64,000 nucleotides of DNA from a phage, in sequence record PZ386957.1; one strand, 5' to 3'. Shown in pieces: positions 3,133 through 39,592 of the stretch. The notes beneath the pieces are model-generated. The model made no database searches. It was not told the origin of the DNA and saw only the letters and a program-made list of their open reading frames with translations. The position numbers and the translations under genes are program-made. The number at the start of each line of letters is the position of its first letter. Position 1 is the first letter of the stretch.

Positions 3133-4158
3133 CTAATTTTTTGCGCTATTTACTTCGGCTAAAAGTTCATCAGAAATACGCTTGACCGCCGCAAGTTCTT
3201 CCGGTTCTAGGTTTTGTTCTTCCAGATATTCATAGACCATCTGAATAGTGCTTTTAACCTCAATAACACCAGTTTCCTGTGATGCGCTACTCTCCAGCTT
3301 ATGGACCACTTTTAGCTTGTGTACAACGGCCTCTAACGCGCTTTCTAACTTAGTTAACCCATTATCAGCGACCGTTGCGATAAGACGCACACTAAGCCCC
3401 TTATAGCGTTCTACATCGATTTTATCATCTGACGGGTAAGTGATACGCACATGATAAGTTTTGTCGTTCTGGATAAACTCTTTTTTGTGTGTATCGGTAT
3501 CAAATACCCAAAAACCACGCGGATCATTTTCGTCACCAGCCGTTAGTGTGTATGGTGTACCGATATACGTTACGTTACCGCCATCACTGATAGTATGAAA
3601 GTGACCAGAAAACACTTCACGGTATTTCTTGAGGAAGTCCGCGCTATAACCTTCGGATTTTAACCCTTTATAGAAATAGTAACCGGACAATTCCCAATGA
3701 CCTACACAATATTCGCTAAATGAATTTTGAATAAACTCTAAAACCTCGGATTTATTGTCATCACAAAACCACGGGAACAGGTCGAATGATACCCCGTCAA
3801 AGCTAACGGTTTCCGGCTTATCAATGACCTTAATGCAATCATACTGGCTTAACACTTCACGCGGTGCGTTAGGCTGGATCTTGTTTCGTTTAAACATATC
3901 ATGATTGCCTACCGTGATATAACAGGTGATTCCTGCCTCTTCCAGTAATGGGATGACCTTAGTACGGTTAAATTTCATGGTTTCATGAGTTATCGCCTTG
4001 CGGCAATCAAACCAATCCCCTGTCTGAATCCATGTCTTAATATCATGTTCTTTTGAGTATTCAACCGCTTTCTTGATGGTATCAAGAATATAATCATGTA
4101 CCCACGGATCATCGCCACCGATACCAGTATGCAGATCACCCAAAAGCAAAATTTTCAT
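3133..4158 (-). CDS. 47: Recombination endonuclease subunit gp47 (SbcD/Mre11-like phosphoesterase)
   Basis: 341 aa; calcineurin-like motifs LGDLHTG, TGDWFD, GNHDMF; T4 gp47 is about 339 aa. Confidence 0.9.
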   Translation of the reverse strand: MKILLLGDLHTGIGGDDPWVHDYILDTIKKAVEYSKEHDIKTWIQTGDWFDCRKAITHETMKFNRTKVIPLLEEAGITCYITVGNHDMFKRNKIQPNAPREVLSQYDCIKVIDKPETVSFDGVSFDLFPWFCDDNKSEVLEFIQNSFSEYCVGHWELSGYYFYKGLKSEGYSADFLKKYREVFSGHFHTISDGGNVTYIGTPYTLTAGDENDPRGFWVFDTDTHKKEFIQNDKTYHVRITYPSDDKIDVERYKGLSVRLIATVADNGLTKLESALEAVVHKLKVVHKLESSASQETGVIEVKSTIQMVYEYLEEQNLEPEELAAVKRISDELLAEVNSAKN

Positions 4159-4197
4159 AGTCTCTTCCTCTCTTCGTTTTCGATGCTCTCACTATAT

Positions 4198-4226
4198 CAT
4201 AGAAAAATAAAAAGGGAAACCCCTTT
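4198..4226 (-). terminator. Putative intrinsic terminator (weak stem)
   Basis: Hairpin AAAGGG-GTTT-CCCTTT followed by TTATTTTT on minus strand. Confidence 0.4.
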
Positions 4227-4248
4227 CAGAGTCTCCCTTATAAAGCCA

Positions 4249-4536
4249 TTACAGCATACTTAATACCGTTTGACGTGTACTAACCCACATAGCGGAAAGC
4301 AGTTCTGGAGTGTGTGGCTGTTTGTAGATATCACGTAATTTTCCGATAGCGTAGATATACGCATCACGGTTATCATCGATGATAGCTTGTTCAGCCCACC
4401 GCTTAAGGCGTGCAATCTCTCGCGAGTTCTTACGCAAGATCTTTTCCGCTTTCTTAGCGGCTTTCGCCTCTAGTTCTGCTTGTACTTTGTCTACTTCATT
4501 CACTACAATCTGGTCATGTTGTTCATCGTAAGTCAT
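4249..4536 (-). CDS. Hypothetical protein
   Basis: 95-aa ORF in the slot where T4 carries a-gt; charged/helical composition. Confidence 0.5.
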   Translation of the reverse strand: MTYDEQHDQIVVNEVDKVQAELEAKAAKKAEKILRKNSREIARLKRWAEQAIIDDNRDAYIYAIGKLRDIYKQPHTPELLSAMWVSTRQTVLSML

Positions 4537-4537
4537 A

Positions 4538-4771
4538 TTATTTTCCTTCTGGGATATAGTCGATGATTAAAGAAAATTCATCTTCTGATACATTATAGCT
4601 ATGTGAGATTGTACCCGTCAAGACCTCAAGATCCGGTGACTTGATATTACACGGATCGATAATCACCGGAACGCCGCAATCTCTCAAAAATAATTTGGCG
4701 AAATACGGCACAAGGTCAGTTTCAAACTCTGCTTCTTCCAGCAAACGGGAAATATTAATTTTCAATCTCAT
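4538..4771 (-). CDS. Hypothetical protein
   Basis: 77-aa ORF between previous ORF and gene 55. Confidence 0.45.
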
Positions 4772-14221: not shown

Positions 14222-15397
14222 AGCACTAACTTTTTTCTTTACTGCTTTCACCTTCTGGCGAATTGCTCGAATCTCTTCGATCTCTTTTTCAGTCTCTTTA
14301 ACAATTTCTTTGCGATTCTGAATATCTGTATCGAGATTATCATCAAGTTTAGGCAGCATGTCAATCAAGAACTTTTTAAAGTCTTTCAGGTTTCGAATAA
14401 CAGCACCTTCGCCCATTACCGCAACACCCACACCATCCGGCAGATCACCAAACAGCTTAACCAGTTCAGACAGATGATCATGATCTTCTAGTGCTTCTTC
14501 CGGTTCAGATGGCAGTTCAACAAAGTTATAACGTTCATCATTGCTGATCAAGTGATACCAGCAAAGCCCGAAAGATTTCGGTGTATATTCTACACCATCA
14601 ATTTCAACCGCGTCAACACTTCCATAATCATCTACTTTAGTTACCTTAAATCCTTGTCCCAGCTTTTGAACAATTTCAACAACATGACTTGATACAGTTT
14701 CAGCGGTAAACCAATATGGCAAATTATGCTGATTTGGCTTGTAGCGTTCACCTACTTTAAATCTCTGACCATCCGCTTGCATAGAATGAAATTGTTGTTT
14801 CGTGATTTCCGCGAAGTATTCAAATTCGCCACCATCAAACACACAAGCCCATTGATCACAAAAACGATCTGCCTTAACAGTTTCACCTTTCGCGGTGATC
14901 ATGGTAGCTGATCCGTGCAATTCTTCTTCAACTAAAAAGCCATATTCGACAAAATCAACAAGTTTCATAGCTTCTTTGTGATCTGGATCATGCTCTCCCC
15001 AGAATCGCTTAAATTCTTGCAAACCTTCTGGGGTAAACGAATAACATTTACCTTTTTCAAAGTAAGTCGGCATTGCATCCTCTTTCTTGTTCATCGCTTC
15101 GTATGCCTCTTTTGAGATGCGTTTAAAGTATTTACGCTCATTGTGCATAATCATAGTAGCCCAATAATCAACAATATCATTAGCGGAATAAACTACATCT
15201 CCAGCTTCAATAGTAATAACATGACCGTGGTCATCTTTTTCTAATACTTTAAAGCCCTTTTCTACGATTTCAGCAACCCGAATATGACCACGGCGCGAAG
15301 CATCGGTCAGAATAATTGAATAGCGAGAAAAGTCTAGAAACTCATCTTTACCGCCTTCACGGAATGCATAGTAATGACCTTCAAAGAATTTAGCCAT
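14219..15397 (-). CDS. Paralog-family protein with multiple tandem modules
   Basis: 392 aa; repeated GFKV..D..G.V..IE.DG..Y units; NERKYFKRISK motif; coiled-coil tail. Confidence 0.6.
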   Translation of the reverse strand: MAKFFEGHYYAFREGGKDEFLDFSRYSIILTDASRRGHIRVAEIVEKGFKVLEKDDHGHVITIEAGDVVYSANDIVDYWATMIMHNERKYFKRISKEAYEAMNKKEDAMPTYFEKGKCYSFTPEGLQEFKRFWGEHDPDHKEAMKLVDFVEYGFLVEEELHGSATMITAKGETVKADRFCDQWACVFDGGEFEYFAEITKQQFHSMQADGQRFKVGERYKPNQHNLPYWFTAETVSSHVVEIVQKLGQGFKVTKVDDYGSVDAVEIDGVEYTPKSFGLCWYHLISNDERYNFVELPSEPEEALEDHDHLSELVKLFGDLPDGVGVAVMGEGAVIRNLKDFKKFLIDMLPKLDDNLDTDIQNRKEIVKETEKEIEEIRAIRQKVKAVKKKVSA

Positions 15398-29964: not shown

Positions 29965-30429
29965 TTATTGGTCCACTTTCAAAACAACCGCCGACATTTT
30001 ACCAGCCAGTCGTTTTGGATTCTCTATAATCATTCGGCAGCATAGACCGTGATACGGTTTACCCTCTTCGATTAGATCTACTGTCATCCCGATCCACATG
30101 TTATTGTCAGTGATTTCTAATCGATTAGGTCGGTCTTCCATTTTCAGGAAGTCGAAGATCTCTGGCAAACGAGTTTCAATCTTATTGAATAGTTCCATCG
30201 TTTTATGTTCATCAATATGACGATCTGTTAGTCGATCAATCATGTGTGGACTAAAACGAATGAAAATATATTCACCGTAACCATCATTCAAGCATTTTTC
30301 TTTAATCTGCGCGTTAGTCTTACGCATTTCGGTTTCGAAGAATCTGCGCAGCTTGCTACGGCGAACGTGTACGTTAATTGTTTCCATTTTATTCTCCTTT
30401 CTTAAACAAATTGTGAAGCCAGTATACAA
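29965..30429 (-). CDS. Hypothetical protein
   Basis: 154-aa ORF; likely start at internal METINVHV. Confidence 0.5.
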   Translation of the reverse strand: MYTGFTICLRKENKMETINVHVRRSKLRRFFETEMRKTNAQIKEKCLNDGYGEYIFIRFSPHMIDRLTDRHIDEHKTMELFNKIETRLPEIFDFLKMEDRPNRLEITDNNMWIGMTVDLIEEGKPYHGLCCRMIIENPKRLAGKMSAVVLKVDQ

Positions 30430-30700
30430 ACGGGATTTCTTTAAACTTGAACTTACCCATATTGAGCATATTCACGCCGACACTTAAATCCCATAATTCT
30501 TTTGGGGTGATAATATGCCATTGATGGTCATGAAGATAAACACAACCGTGGCCTTTTGCAATAATAACATCAACCCAAATGCCTTGTTTTGTTCTAACTT
30601 TTGCGGTAATGCCATCCCCATTATCAATGGCAGCATAAGGTTTAAACGCTTCGAAATATCGGCTTCCGTCGTAATTTGTATAAATCAAAATTTCTTTCAT
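30389..30700 (-). CDS. Hypothetical protein
   Basis: 103-aa ORF after promoter/stem-loop 30728-30757. Confidence 0.5.
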   Translation of the reverse strand: MKEILIYTNYDGSRYFEAFKPYAAIDNGDGITAKVRTKQGIWVDVIIAKGHGCVYLHDHQWHIITPKELWDLSVGVNMLNMGKFKFKEIPFVYWLHNLFKKGE

Positions 30701-30757: not shown

Positions 30758-31018
30758 CTACTTTTTCAAGAATTTTTTAATTGCGTTCCAAAGACCTTTA
30801 TTCTCAGGTTGTTTTGGTTCTTCGATCAGTGTCCATGTTCGACCGTCTAAGTGTGCACAATTTTTAAGGCAAATAAAAATCTGGTGTCCCTTATCATCAC
30901 GGATATAACCACTATTCGCAAATCTTTCATGTGGTGTATATTCATACAGTGTATTTGGTGTAATATACTTGCGGTTACTATAAGGTGTCATCACATACAT
31001 CATGGTATTAACTCCCAT
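30758..31018 (-). CDS. Small protein, paralog A
   Basis: 86 aa; shares Y.FTP...GYI.DD.G..I.I.L..C.HL.G..W.LI pattern with 31000-31194. Confidence 0.5.
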   Translation of the reverse strand: MGVNTMMYVMTPYSNRKYITPNTLYEYTPHERFANSGYIRDDKGHQIFICLKNCAHLDGRTWTLIEEPKQPENKGLWNAIKKFLKK

Positions 31019-31194
31019 TTATCACCGCGAAGATGAGAACATCCACCATCAAGAAGTATCGTAATACGATAACCTATATCATCTTTGATGTAACCGATTG
31101 TCGGTGGATTTTCGTCGTCTCGTGTCGGGGTAAAATCATACATCTTTCCGGGCGTAATATCTTGTCCTTTATTGCTATTGGTATAAACTTGCAT
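31000..31194 (-). CDS. Small protein, paralog B
   Basis: 64 aa; same pattern as 30758-31018. Confidence 0.5.
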   Translation of the reverse strand: MQVYTNSNKGQDITPGKMYDFTPTRDDENPPTIGYIKDDIGYRITILLDGGCSHLRGDKWELIP

Positions 31195-31215: not shown

Positions 31216-31914
31216 CTAACCACGTGTATAGTGTTCCAGAACAACGGTCAGATGAATATCTTCTAATAAATCTTTCCAAAAGTCAACATATGGTTCTTCC
31301 GGCATACCGTTTTTCTTTGCCTCTTCACGCGCGAGTTTAACACGCTCGTAGAGATCTTTCAATTCTTCCCGCACATCATCAAAGGTTCTTTCGCCCATCT
31401 TACATGCTAAGATAGAATCACGTTGAGATAGCGGGAATTGTAGATCACCTGTCTGATAGATTTCAAGTAGCTGATAACCAACACGCAGAGCATGAGAAAG
31501 ATCTTTCCAGTTACTGAAATACTTTTCAGATTTGGCTACCTGTTTCTTGAGATAACCAGACAAACCCCACATCCCAACATGATAGAATTTATCGCGATGT
31601 GTTCGGATGTATTCCCATTCTCTGGAGGATTCAATCAACATGTTACTAGGCGCGTGCACCATGTCAATAGCGCCAATATCACCTTTACATGCCAGATTGA
31701 TAAACCGTTTTAGACTGAACATATTAACGTCAATATCGTCTTTGGTGTTCTTGATACCTTGACCGCTAGTGCTTTGGTCATAGTGTTCTTTCATCGATCC
31801 TAAGATAATTTCTTTAGCAGTCGGAACAAAGATACCACGATAATCTTTATCGGAATTTTCAGTATTAAGGCCGTATAAGTGAGATCCGAAGACCATTTTA
31901 ACCATTGTATGCAT
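31216..31914 (-). CDS. Pol-beta superfamily nucleotidyltransferase
   Basis: 232 aa; N-terminal GSHLYGLNTENSDKDYRGIFV (GS-x9-D-x-D nucleotidyltransferase signature). Confidence 0.6.
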   Translation of the reverse strand: MHTMVKMVFGSHLYGLNTENSDKDYRGIFVPTAKEIILGSMKEHYDQSTSGQGIKNTKDDIDVNMFSLKRFINLACKGDIGAIDMVHAPSNMLIESSREWEYIRTHRDKFYHVGMWGLSGYLKKQVAKSEKYFSNWKDLSHALRVGYQLLEIYQTGDLQFPLSQRDSILACKMGERTFDDVREELKDLYERVKLAREEAKKNGMPEEPYVDFWKDLLEDIHLTVVLEHYTRG

Positions 31915-31956
31915 AATTAAACCCTCAGTTGATTAAGAGATTGCATCATATCATCA

Positions 31957-31989
31957 TAAAAAGAAAAAGCCAACCCTTTCGGATTGGCT
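31957..31989 (-). terminator. Intrinsic terminator after the GrcA-like gene
   Basis: AGCCAATCC-GAAA-GGGTTGGCT then TTTTTCTTTTT. Confidence 0.75.
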
Positions 31990-31995
31990 TAGAGT

Positions 31996-32412
31996 TTACA
32001 TTGATTCCGTAAAGGTTCGAGTAATAATATCTAATTGTTGCTCACGAGTTAAGCTATTGAAGCGGCAAGCATAGCCCGAAATTCGTACAGTTAGCGACGG
32101 GTATTTTTCAGGATTTTCCAGCGCATCCAGAAGAAGATCGCGATTCATTACGTTGACATTGATATGTTGAGCACCGCGATTAGTTCCGATCTCACCGTCA
32201 ACCATCACCGAACGGAAGCTAGTTGTGTGCAGTGCCAGCGAATCTACGTCTTCGGCAGTGATCACATGGTCTTCTGCGAAAGTCTTACTAACAATTACTT
32301 TAGCACCGATCAGTGCTTTCGGTTCTGATACCAGAATCATAGGCGCGAAGTGTCCACCAATAACAGTACCTTTATGCTCACCTTTCATGATTTGAATTGC
32401 TTTAAATTCCAT
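31996..32412 (-). CDS. Autonomous glycyl radical cofactor (GrcA/YfiD-like)
   Basis: 138 aa; C-terminal GAQHINVNV..PEKYPSLTVRISGYACRFNSLTREQQLDIITRTFTESM closely parallels E. coli GrcA glycyl-radical motif. Confidence 0.8.
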   Translation of the reverse strand: MEFKAIQIMKGEHKGTVIGGHFAPMILVSEPKALIGAKVIVSKTFAEDHVITAEDVDSLALHTTSFRSVMVDGEIGTNRGAQHINVNVMNRDLLLDALENPEKYPSLTVRISGYACRFNSLTREQQLDIITRTFTESM

Positions 32413-33517: not shown

Positions 33518-33709
33518 TTAGATTCCGGTGATCCTGCATAGAGTTCTTGTATTAGCACCAATCAGGATAGCATTAACGACAACCATTCCCCAATCAACCC
33601 ACGGATTATTATAAATGCTGAATCCGTTTGCAAGGCCAAATACAAGCATTCCGGTACACATACTCAGAGCAATAATCAACATCACGGTAAAACCAAATGC
33701 AAATTTCAT
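33518..33709 (-). CDS. Small membrane protein (2 TM)
   Basis: 63 aa, almost entirely hydrophobic. Confidence 0.5.
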   Translation of the reverse strand: MKFAFGFTVMLIIALSMCTGMLVFGLANGFSIYNNPWVDWGMVVVNAILIGANTRTLCRITGI

Positions 33710-33710
33710 A

Positions 33711-33941
33711 TTATTTTCCTTTTCTCTGTTTACGTTTATAAAAGTAATACATTACCTCATCGCGTCCGGTGATCCAACATGCTAGGGCAGTAAACAAGTT
33801 TACAATTCCCAACACACCTACGGATGCGGCGCTATCAACGGACATAGGAACAGTAAAGGCCATAGCTAGCATCGCAACGCCACAAATGATATTAAGCACC
33901 ATTATAATAAGACCGAAGAAAACCATTGTCAATCCTCCCAA
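33711..33941 (-). CDS. Small membrane protein (2 TM)
   Basis: 76 aa hydrophobic with basic C-terminus. Confidence 0.5.
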   Translation of the reverse strand: MGGLTMVFFGLIIMVLNIICGVAMLAMAFTVPMSVDSAASVGVLGIVNLFTALACWITGRDEVMYYFYKRKQRKGK

Positions 33942-34120
33942 ATAAGAAAACCAACAATCACACCCATAATAAGAGAGGATGCACCACTAATCAAGCAACC
34001 CGCGCCAAGTGATTCCCACCAGATCAGGGAAGCGACAATAACGCAAAATCCCCAGACTACCGCAATTATAACATAGACAAACATAATCCAAAATAGATAC
34101 TTGTTCATAATAAATCCCAT
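33929..34120 (-). CDS. Small membrane protein (2 TM)
   Basis: 63 aa hydrophobic. Confidence 0.5.
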   Translation of the reverse strand: MGFIMNKYLFWIMFVYVIIAVVWGFCVIVASLIWWESLGAGCLISGASSLIMGVIVGFLIWED

Positions 34121-34293
34121 TCACCAATCAAATATGAAAATAGCCAAATAAACAGAAACGAGACAATTGATCCAGCAAGCAAAATAATATTAGAGAATCC
34201 GCCGTTTATCCAGTCGATCAAACAGAATATTCCAGTATAGAAACACAACCCAATTACAAAACAGACGATAAGCAACCATAGGTAAAACGCCAT
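34105..34293 (-). CDS. Small membrane protein (2 TM)
   Basis: 62 aa hydrophobic. Confidence 0.5.
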   Translation of the reverse strand: MAFYLWLLIVCFVIGLCFYTGIFCLIDWINGGFSNIILLAGSIVSFLFIWLFSYLIGEWDLL

Positions 34294-34515
34294 AGAAAGC
34301 CCTCCAGTGAGCTAAATTAGTGCGGGTAGTACATTCTCCTACCCGCGTTGTTAATCATCGTATAGCGTGTTCTATGGCGACTCCTACAAGGCCACTAACA
34401 ACACCAGTACAGAAAGCAACTAGAGCATTCATTCGGTCTTTAGGGATCATTGCAAACAGTACAACACCCACACAGAAAGCCATCACCATTGAAGTTAACA
34501 TTTGTTCCATCATTA

Positions 34516-39121: not shown

Positions 39122-39592
39122 TTACAGTTTGGTCGTCCACTCCAGATCTAGATCTTCGACATACTCATGAGATCGGACAATCTCTAAATCGAACTCTAGG
39201 TCAGTGCCAAATTTACGCGCACCAACATCATAAGAAAGCGTGATATGCGGTACATATTCAGGATAATCCCACGTCGCACCTAAAGCAGTTCCGATATCGT
39301 GTCTGAATTGCATGTAGTCGCTTTCAAATGCCAGCACAAGTGCATTAGTACCGGATTGAGTTTCAAACACTTTCAGATGGCATAGAGAGCCTAAGAACTT
39401 CTCCCCTTCTTCTGGGATAAACGGAACATAAACACGAGAATATAAGATAGTGCTATGCAGTTTATCACGAGGAACGGCATTAGGAAGATCGTAGAACTCT
39501 TGCAATTTTTCAATGCGGTCTAGTGTATCCTCAGTGAATTTAACCGCCGCATATGTACCTTTAACGGATTCTTTGAACGGGGTCATAATCAA
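39122..39592 (-). CDS. 57B: 2H phosphoesterase (gene 57B position; Acb1-like)
   Basis: 156 aa; two H-x-T/S-x motifs (LHSTIL, PHITLS) diagnostic of the 2H superfamily; located upstream of 57A/1 as in T4. Confidence 0.7.
   Translation of the reverse strand: MIMTPFKESVKGTYAAVKFTEDTLDRIEKLQEFYDLPNAVPRDKLHSTILYSRVYVPFIPEEGEKFLGSLCHLKVFETQSGTNALVLAFESDYMQFRHDIGTALGATWDYPEYVPHITLSYDVGARKFGTDLEFDLEIVRSHEYVEDLDLEWTTKL

Follow-up and report, generated by a model that had tools for sequence, protein, structure and literature searches.

What does a phage do with a small, stand-alone nucleotidyltransferase (NTase)? The question is raised by one gene in a 64-kb stretch of phage DNA, which we refer to as the window. 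A preliminary description had assigned the product to the Pol-beta superfamily, placed the gene in an early accessory region, and offered three candidate roles: repair of tRNA or other RNA 3' ends against host defenses that target RNA, synthesis of a nucleotide signal, and nucleotidylation of a host factor. We find that the gene is the already named nrdC.11, in its Krischvirus form, a point that the preliminary description missed. Neither the gene nor its family is new. Database records carry annotations for the gene, the T4 ortholog had been flagged before, and the family has been named and partly characterized. The name RlaP reportedly goes back to Burroughs and Aravind in 2016.

A Krischvirus ortholog of T4 nrdC.11

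The gene is a minus-strand open reading frame (ORF) at 31216..31914 (-), stop codon included, that encodes 232 amino acids (aa) beginning with MHTMVKMVFGSHLYGLNTENSDKDYRGIFV. These are exactly the boundaries given in the preliminary description, which left the strand unstated. The DNA is 96 to 97% identical to the genes of Phi1, RB49, and GEC-3S, and 59 phage records, all of them Krischvirus (RB49/Phi1/GEC-3S-like T4-type coliphages), carry the gene at 90 to 99% DNA identity. The source of the window is thus a Krischvirus (an RB49/Phi1-like T4-type coliphage). Annotations in the 59 records read nrdC.11, "nucleotidyltransferase," or, erroneously, "glutaredoxin" or "thioredoxin." GenBank and UniRef names for NrdC.11 homologs in general are often "thioredoxin," "glutaredoxin," and even "HNH homing endonuclease." This looks like the spread of names from the unrelated neighboring genes nrdC and mobD.

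The ORF list, Pfam, PHROG, and DNA identity together define the coding sequence as a short form of the RlaP-family (PF10127) Pol-beta NTases. PF10127 (RlaP, "RNA repair pathway DNA polymerase beta family") is the only Pfam family matched (E = 3.2e-14, 53.7 bits against a gathering cutoff of 23), with protein residues 7 to 191 aligned to model positions 24 to 198 of 249. PHROG 388, "nucleotidyltransferase," is matched at E = 2.2e-78. These two matches rule out a chance ORF. A profile search of the 232-aa protein against NCBIfam gave no meaningful match. Two plus-strand ORFs inside the gene (31492..31713 and 31607..31762) are short and unsupported and were rejected as by-products of the minus-strand coding frame. 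A HMMER scan of 1.84 billion cluster representatives (50%-identity clusters) returned 3745 relatives at E ≤ 1e-3; the best 120 matches of the alignment-based homolog search came from the NrdC.11 clade alone, without distant diversity. We regard membership of the RlaP family as close to certain. Furthermore, the gene is intact and under purifying selection, with a dN/dS of 0.17 against the Phi1 ortholog and all eight amino acid differences lying outside the motifs.

The gene is the Krischvirus ortholog of T4 nrdC.11. The two proteins are 41 to 44% identical in two collinear blocks (residues 1 to ~130 and ~135 to 222), fall in the same PF10127 clade, and share the invariant G-S, DxD, DxD, and K-x3-H-x2-R. 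The T4 protein bears a Swiss-Prot–style name, [quoted passage not shown] whereas the Krischvirus gene was named nrdC.11 by the Phi1 annotators. Map positions also differ: The T4-type gene lies beside mobD, and the Krischvirus gene is flanked by vs.6 and by two small paralogs near regB. NrdC.11 orthologs had been matched to a nucleotidyltransferase COG (COG3541) as early as 2006 (PMC1524935).

Conserved motifs and predicted fold

The N terminus had been read as a canonical GS-x(9-13)-D-x-D signature, and it fits: G10-S11, the hG[GS] motif (31882..31887 (-)), is followed by 10 residues and then by D22-K23-D24 (31843..31851 (-); ATCTTTATC on the plus strand, the reverse complement of GATAAAGAT). 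Across 64 aligned homologs with mutual identity below 90%, residues G10, S11, D22, D24, D60, D62, D84, K137, H141, and R144 are invariant. The two aspartates of D60-I61-D62 (31729..31737 (-)), of which D62 is the D of an h-D-h motif, remain invariant when the protein is aligned with mycobacteriophage Aziz gp54. A nine-sequence set adds Aziz gp54 and more distant short forms, one of which (P0183) carries N in place of D24.

AlphaFold prediction from the lone sequence was too poor to use (pLDDT 36.8), and an AlphaFold2 model on the 64-sequence alignment was used instead (pLDDT 91.6, pTM 0.87). A BFVD model, made independently for a protein 96% identical to this one, superposes on it at TM 0.98. 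The AlphaFold2 model has an N-terminal NTase alpha/beta domain (residues ~1 to 97, 31624..31914 (-)) with strands at 2-9, 24-30, 44-48, 62-67, and 93-96. The C-terminal domain (residues ~98 to 232, 31219..31623 (-)) is all-helical, with helices at 98-105, 107-110, 116-131, 136-155, 165-172, 178-201, and 210-229, the last of these being a long terminal helix. G10-S11 ends strand 1, D22 and D24 start strand 2, and D62 starts strand 62-67, so that the modeled placement is the classical hG[GS]/DxD/hDh arrangement. The acidic residues D22, D24, D60, and D62 thus sit on the expected strands of the model. D22 and D24 are the first two catalytic carboxylates, and from the model we infer that D62, rather than D60, is the third. 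Profile search, motif invariance, and structure prediction together bear out the proposed place in the Pol-beta superfamily. The remark that 232 aa is larger than a minimal MNT antitoxin and smaller than a CD-NTase is also correct.

The helical domain contributes a basic motif, K137-x3-H141-x2-R144 ("WKDLSHALR," 31483..31506 (-)), on helix 136-155. All three residues are invariant in the 64-homolog alignment and in the set that includes the canonical RlaP of phage Aziz. Going by the description of the cleft in a RlaP structure (PMC12776372), this motif probably lines the NTP/RNA cleft.

RlaP chemistry and structural relatives

Two Pseudomonas RlaPs (PfRlaP and PaRlaP) were characterized in a December 2025 preprint (PMC12776372). 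They label RNA from E. coli extracts, and neither DNA nor protein, by adding one to two NMPs (or dNMPs) to the RNA 3'-OH, with a preference for Mn2+ and for the 5' half of a cleaved tRNA mimic (PMC12776372). Species the size of rRNA and full-length tRNA are labeled as well, with little NTP specificity (PMC12776372). RlaPs raise the aminoacylation of religated tRNA that is short of one anticodon-loop nucleotide, although, as the preprint authors point out, untemplated addition gives the right nucleotide back only part of the time (PMC12776372). In the crystal structure, an NTase domain at the N terminus is joined to a helical one at the C terminus, and three aspartates are conserved; "T4NrdC.11" is placed in RlaP SSN cluster 5 (PMC12776372).

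The phage protein shares with PfRlaP and PaRlaP its Pfam family and the three conserved aspartates and, in its model, the two-domain plan and the long terminal helix. In the family plan the two domains enclose a cleft, and the last helix packs against the NTase domain. The relationship is visible at the profile level only. Sequence searches with the protein, its N-terminal 111 aa, and the family profile, run against a copy of the PDB without the PfRlaP crystal structure, gave nothing relevant. Other viral NTases of the RlaP type (Rheinheimera phage Barba19A, Bacillus phage G gp218, Aziz gp54, giant-virus proteins, and baculovirus HE65) have predicted folds that can be superposed on the phage protein at TM 0.7 to 0.84, with identities of 12 to 29% and with varying lengths and fusions. 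In BFVD, RlaP-like folds also occur in Klosneuvirus, Terrestrivirus, and Yasminevirus, some fused to proteins annotated as exonuclease or endonuclease V, and in baculovirus HE65. These predicted structures suggest a broad distribution of the RlaP module in large DNA viruses of eukaryotes too.

Could the phage enzyme instead nucleotidylate a protein or small molecule, in the manner of MntA (which AMPylates HEPN toxins), KNTase, LinB, or AadA, and so inactivate, for example, a host toxin or defense effector? Structural matches to kanamycin nucleotidyltransferase ANT(4'), LinB, and AadA, all with small-molecule substrates, do exist, but they are weak (TM 0.25 to 0.46, 9 to 17% identity) and come from the two-domain fold that these proteins have in common. 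Pfam returns RlaP and no ANT or MNT family, which led us to reject an aminoglycoside NTase. An MNT antitoxin was rejected as well: The protein is a fused two-domain one of 232 aa (against ~100 to 150 aa for an MNT), no HEPN gene adjoins it, and the sole occurrence of the HEPN motif R-x4-6-H is R107...H112, in which H112 is not conserved in homologs. Moreover, E. coli proteins went unlabeled by bacterial RlaPs. Nucleotidylation of a host factor, the third role first proposed, is therefore disfavored, and we consider protein or small-molecule targets in general quite unlikely.

The proposed synthesis of a nucleotide signal is without support. We found no SMODS/CD-NTase match in Pfam and no NTase match in PADLOC, and cGAS chains appeared at Foldseek probabilities below 0.2; a CD-NTase or cGAS-like enzyme was rejected on these grounds. 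A CCA-adding enzyme or poly(A) polymerase was also rejected, with no Pfam match and with the CCA-adding enzyme 3h3a at probability 0.35 and TM 0.27.

The top structural matches are to HalB of the Hailong system (PDB 9dbh, 9dbi, and 9dbj; 13 to 17% identity), and D22 and D24 match the positions of HalB D21 and D23. The product of HalB is an oligodeoxyadenylate, primed by protein, that holds the HalA channel shut (PMC13434031). A corresponding role for the phage enzyme would be template-independent, possibly protein-primed, synthesis of a short DNA or oligonucleotide, which would act as a decoy or substitute signal against guard defenses such as Hailong. However, what the two proteins share is the general two-domain layout of NTases, and no relationship is found at the sequence level. 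Characterized RlaPs do not extend DNA and stop after one to two additions. HalB is a host defense component paired with the HalA channel, and no such partner or activity is indicated for the phage protein; a HalA-like partner or target is unreported for these phages, in which the distribution of nrdC.11 tracks RNA ligase 1. PADLOC, in a 2023 library that perhaps lacks Hailong, produced nothing beyond noise (a CARF model at E = 0.035). We therefore see very little chance of HalB-like synthesis.

Upstream signals and gene neighborhood

A Shine-Dalgarno sequence, GAGGG (31922..31926 (-)), lies 7 nt 5' of the ATG. Farther upstream, a consensus scan picked out a sigma70-like promoter candidate (TTGGCT, 17 nt, and a TG-extended TATGAT; 31945..31973 (-)). 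A scan also picked out an intrinsic terminator–like hairpin (10-bp stem and GAAA loop; 31967..31990) with a T-tract (together 31957..31990 (-)), which would terminate the unit of vs.6 and shares sequence with the -35 box of the promoter candidate. Both signals are candidates recognized by their sequence patterns. nrdC.11 is transcribed leftward, as are T4-type early genes (PMC1524935). Given this direction and the promoter candidate directly upstream, the proposed location in an early accessory region is plausible.

Gene order in the window is the same as in Phi1: endolysin, vs.8, a small ORF, vs.6, nrdC.11, three small ORFs, regB, vs.1, vs, and tk.4. Pfam and PHROG searches confirmed vs.6 as a glycyl-radical protein, regB (29965..30429) as an endoribonuclease, the endolysin as Peptidase_M15_4, and vs as a valyl-tRNA-synthetase modifier; dmd lies a few kilobases upstream of nrdC.11. 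No RNA ligase, kinase, or other RNA-repair gene adjoins nrdC.11, the neighbors being vs.6, two small paralogs, regB, and endolysin. Because of this, the guilt-by-association argument behind the naming of the family does not apply locally.

Several features of this region are worth recording in their own right. The upstream vs.6 (31996..32412 (-), 138 aa), which we take to correspond to T4 Y06I, has a C-terminal glycyl-radical domain (PF01228, E = 4e-14; ...RISGYACRF...) and on its sequence appears to be a GrcA/YfiD-like stand-alone glycyl-radical cofactor. About 20 nt downstream of nrdC.11, on the same strand, lie two tandem paralogs (31000..31194 (-) and 30758..31018 (-); 41% identity, E = 5e-13) that belong to PHROGs 6261 and 15978, both of unknown function, and have a C-x-HL-x3-W motif in common. 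The ORF at 30389..30700 (-), which has no PHROG, is possibly a third relative of this pair, judged by eye. Between the endolysin and the genes upstream of it, 33518..34513 (-) holds five consecutive small, very hydrophobic ORFs (52 to 76 aa), which look like small membrane proteins. Four of them were scanned (all except the 52-aa ORF at 34355..34513), and each has its own PHROG of unknown function. Last, the T4 57B ortholog at 39122..39592 (-) is a strong match to Acb1, an anti-CBASS 2H phosphodiesterase (PF23474, E = 1.5e-51). Its RefSeq name in Phi1, "RNA ligase," is misleading.

Partner enzymes and a predicted role in tRNA repair

The partners that nrdC.11 lacks nearby are found elsewhere in the genome of the close relative Phi1. 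Phi1 carries, as verified by Pfam, Pnkp (pseT: AAA_33 kinase plus HAD_PNKP phosphatase) and Rnl1 (rnlA: RNA_lig_T4_1 plus a tRNA-specific C-terminal domain), both ~75 kb from nrdC.11 and outside the 64-kb window. The arrangement differs from that of the Pseudomonas RlaP genes, which lie inside rtcB-rtcA operons, beside a ligase of the 3'-phosphate type; the phage gene has no such company, and the ligase of its genome is the 5'-phosphate ligase Rnl1. The phage set is chemically self-consistent, in that the 3'-OH left by Pnkp is the kind of end that RlaP extends and that Rnl1 joins to a 5'-P. The RtcB-linked RlaPs of the preprint are without such end compatibility, as its authors note (PMC12776372). 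At a similar distance from nrdC.11, Phi1 also encodes a stand-alone 158-aa HAD_PNKP-type phosphatase (ORF229, at 14341..14817 (-) of record L003; PF25109, E = 3e-13), annotated as "polynucleotide kinase," which from its domain content may be a second RNA/DNA 3'-end healing activity.

Co-occurrence points the same way. At an identity of at least 95%, database records number 59 for NrdC.11, 59 for Rnl1, and 59 for Pnkp, as counts and not as matched record lists. Homolog counts per genus (again not matched lists) are near equal for NrdC.11 and Rnl1: 607 and 637 in Escherichia, 285 and 287 in Klebsiella, 83 and 83 in Shigella, 75 and 77 in Aeromonas, 69 and 69 in Acinetobacter, and 56 and 56 in Enterobacter. 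These near-equal counts agree with the published co-distribution of RlaP and RNA ligases, in that a 2021 comparative study found that the distribution of RlaP in jumbo phages mirrors that of RNA ligases (PMC7824862).

Why would a phage need such an enzyme? RloC excises the wobble nucleotide, and plain religation then gives a dead tRNA. RlaP was predicted to restore RloC-removed nucleotides before ligation (PMC7824862). Repair of RNA or tRNA 3' ends against RNA-targeting defenses, the first role named in the preliminary description, is the predicted role of the family, and it has biochemical support for bacterial members (PMC12776372, PMC7824862).

We lean, with modest confidence, toward nucleotide refilling in phage tRNA repair, before ligation, as the full mechanism. 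D22, D24, and D62 (with D60) would hold two divalent metals, probably Mn2+. An NTP would enter the cleft between the NTase and helical domains, its alpha-phosphate would be attacked by the RNA 3'-OH, and one to two nucleotides would be added with no template. NrdC.11 would act between phage Pnkp, which would convert the 2',3'-cyclic phosphate to a 3'-OH and phosphorylate the 5'-OH, and RNA ligase 1, which would seal 3'-OH to 5'-P ends. In this way, NrdC.11 would refill the nucleotide cut from a host tRNA by an RloC-type anticodon nuclease, and a fraction of the religated tRNAs would become functional again. The chemistry proposed for the phage enzyme is by analogy with its bacterial homologs, and we infer the in vivo substrate and the anti-defense role. 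ARAGORN found no tRNA and Rfam no RNA family in the window, and RB49 has no tRNA genes (PMC1524935); these phages are therefore wholly reliant on host tRNAs. Refilling would be especially important in a phage group without tRNA genes of its own.

If the phage enzyme acts like its bacterial relatives, it would complete the classic T4 pathway of tRNA repair with a third step, so that ends are healed, the gap is refilled, and the tRNA is sealed; refilling is what has been predicted as the response to RloC-type nucleases. T4 can do without nrdC.11 on laboratory hosts (PMC9825161). This fits an accessory or conditional counter-defense gene, but says nothing on which role it has. Note that refilling was put forward in publications of 2016 and 2021 and received a partial test in 2025; the locus offers one more ortholog and no new concept. 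Its importance is modest.

The same chemistry could serve RNA 3' tailing rather than repair. The enzyme would then mark host or early phage transcripts, or fragments cut by RegB, for decay, or would cap 3' ends against exonucleases. The RNA-handling genes in its vicinity (regB, vs, and dmd), the lack of a ligase or kinase close by, and the labeling of rRNA-sized and full-length tRNA species by bacterial RlaPs with little NTP specificity are all compatible with tailing. However, the one to two nucleotides added by characterized members would make a poor decay tag, the enzyme prefers the 5' half of cleaved tRNA, and its genome-level distribution tracks Rnl1 closely. We consider tailing unlikely on balance.

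The short form

T4/T2-type NrdC.11 is ~336 aa long. Alignments show that an insert of ~100 aa separates its NTase domain from its helical domain and that a KYGxKGSR motif, with at least 90% conservation across the NrdC.11 clade, stands ahead of this insert. Both the linker motif and the insert are absent from the Krischvirus protein in the alignments. The site of the T4-type insert corresponds to a linker of residues ~126 to 136 ("AKSEKYFSN," 31507..31539 (-)). With both elements missing, the substrate preference may differ from that of T4 NrdC.11 and of the bacterial enzymes.

The Pfam RlaP model is collinear with short forms. A 56%-identical, 234-aa relative aligns over residues 6 to 221 to positions 23 to 229, and only the N-terminal 134 residues of the T2 protein align to the model. 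Aziz gp54, a canonical phage RlaP, matches PF10127 over its full length and has an ~20-aa linker with GLRGKK as the counterpart of KYGxKGSR; its neighbors, hypothetical proteins and a DUF7183 protein, are uninformative. In a crude neighbor-joining tree of ~155 representatives, short forms are nested among long-form clades at four points. This protein and its 234-aa sister occupy one of these; the remaining three are held by proteins of 231, 248, and 258 aa. The scatter of the short forms suggests from sequence that the insert was lost repeatedly; the rough tree is also compatible with a retained ancestral state. The 234-aa sister is encoded on a metagenomic contig (L004) with the same synteny, namely endolysin, a vs.8-like gene, a glycyl-radical protein, an inserted HNH endonuclease, and RlaP.

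Is the short form a decaying or functionally reduced remnant, crippled by the loss of the insert and KYGxKGSR? The absence of a motif so well conserved in the clade, and the dispensability of T4 nrdC.11 in the laboratory, would be expected of such a remnant. Against this, the low dN/dS, the intact catalytic and helical-domain invariant residues, and the reading frame kept intact in 59 records all argue for a functional gene. Short forms appear to have arisen several times inside long-form clades, one that is only 56% identical keeps the same gene order in a relative farther removed, and the short form fits the canonical Pfam model better than the T2 protein does. Decay is thus highly improbable.

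The loss of the insert and of the basic KYGxKGSR linker, together with the structural resemblance to HalB, gives rise to another reading. The short form would be no tRNA-gap filler but a HalB-like untemplated oligonucleotide synthesizer, or a 3'-end modifier with a different target, put to anti-defense use (e.g., a decoy inhibitory oligonucleotide against Hailong-type guard systems). We give this reading scant credence, and continue to favor refilling.

The short form is the one feature for which we found no description, and its interest is minor and practical. A natural 232-aa minimal version, from a tRNA-less phage with Pnkp and Rnl1, is a compact construct for biochemistry, and its comparison with the 336-aa T4 form is a natural one for the function of the insert.

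The contig with the 234-aa sister holds two further points of interest. Two ORFs of 68 and 87 aa, similar in size to the paralogs of the window, follow its RlaP gene. At 3951..4547 (+), it carries a HNH/NUMOD4 homing endonuclease where the window has only the terminator/promoter spacer.
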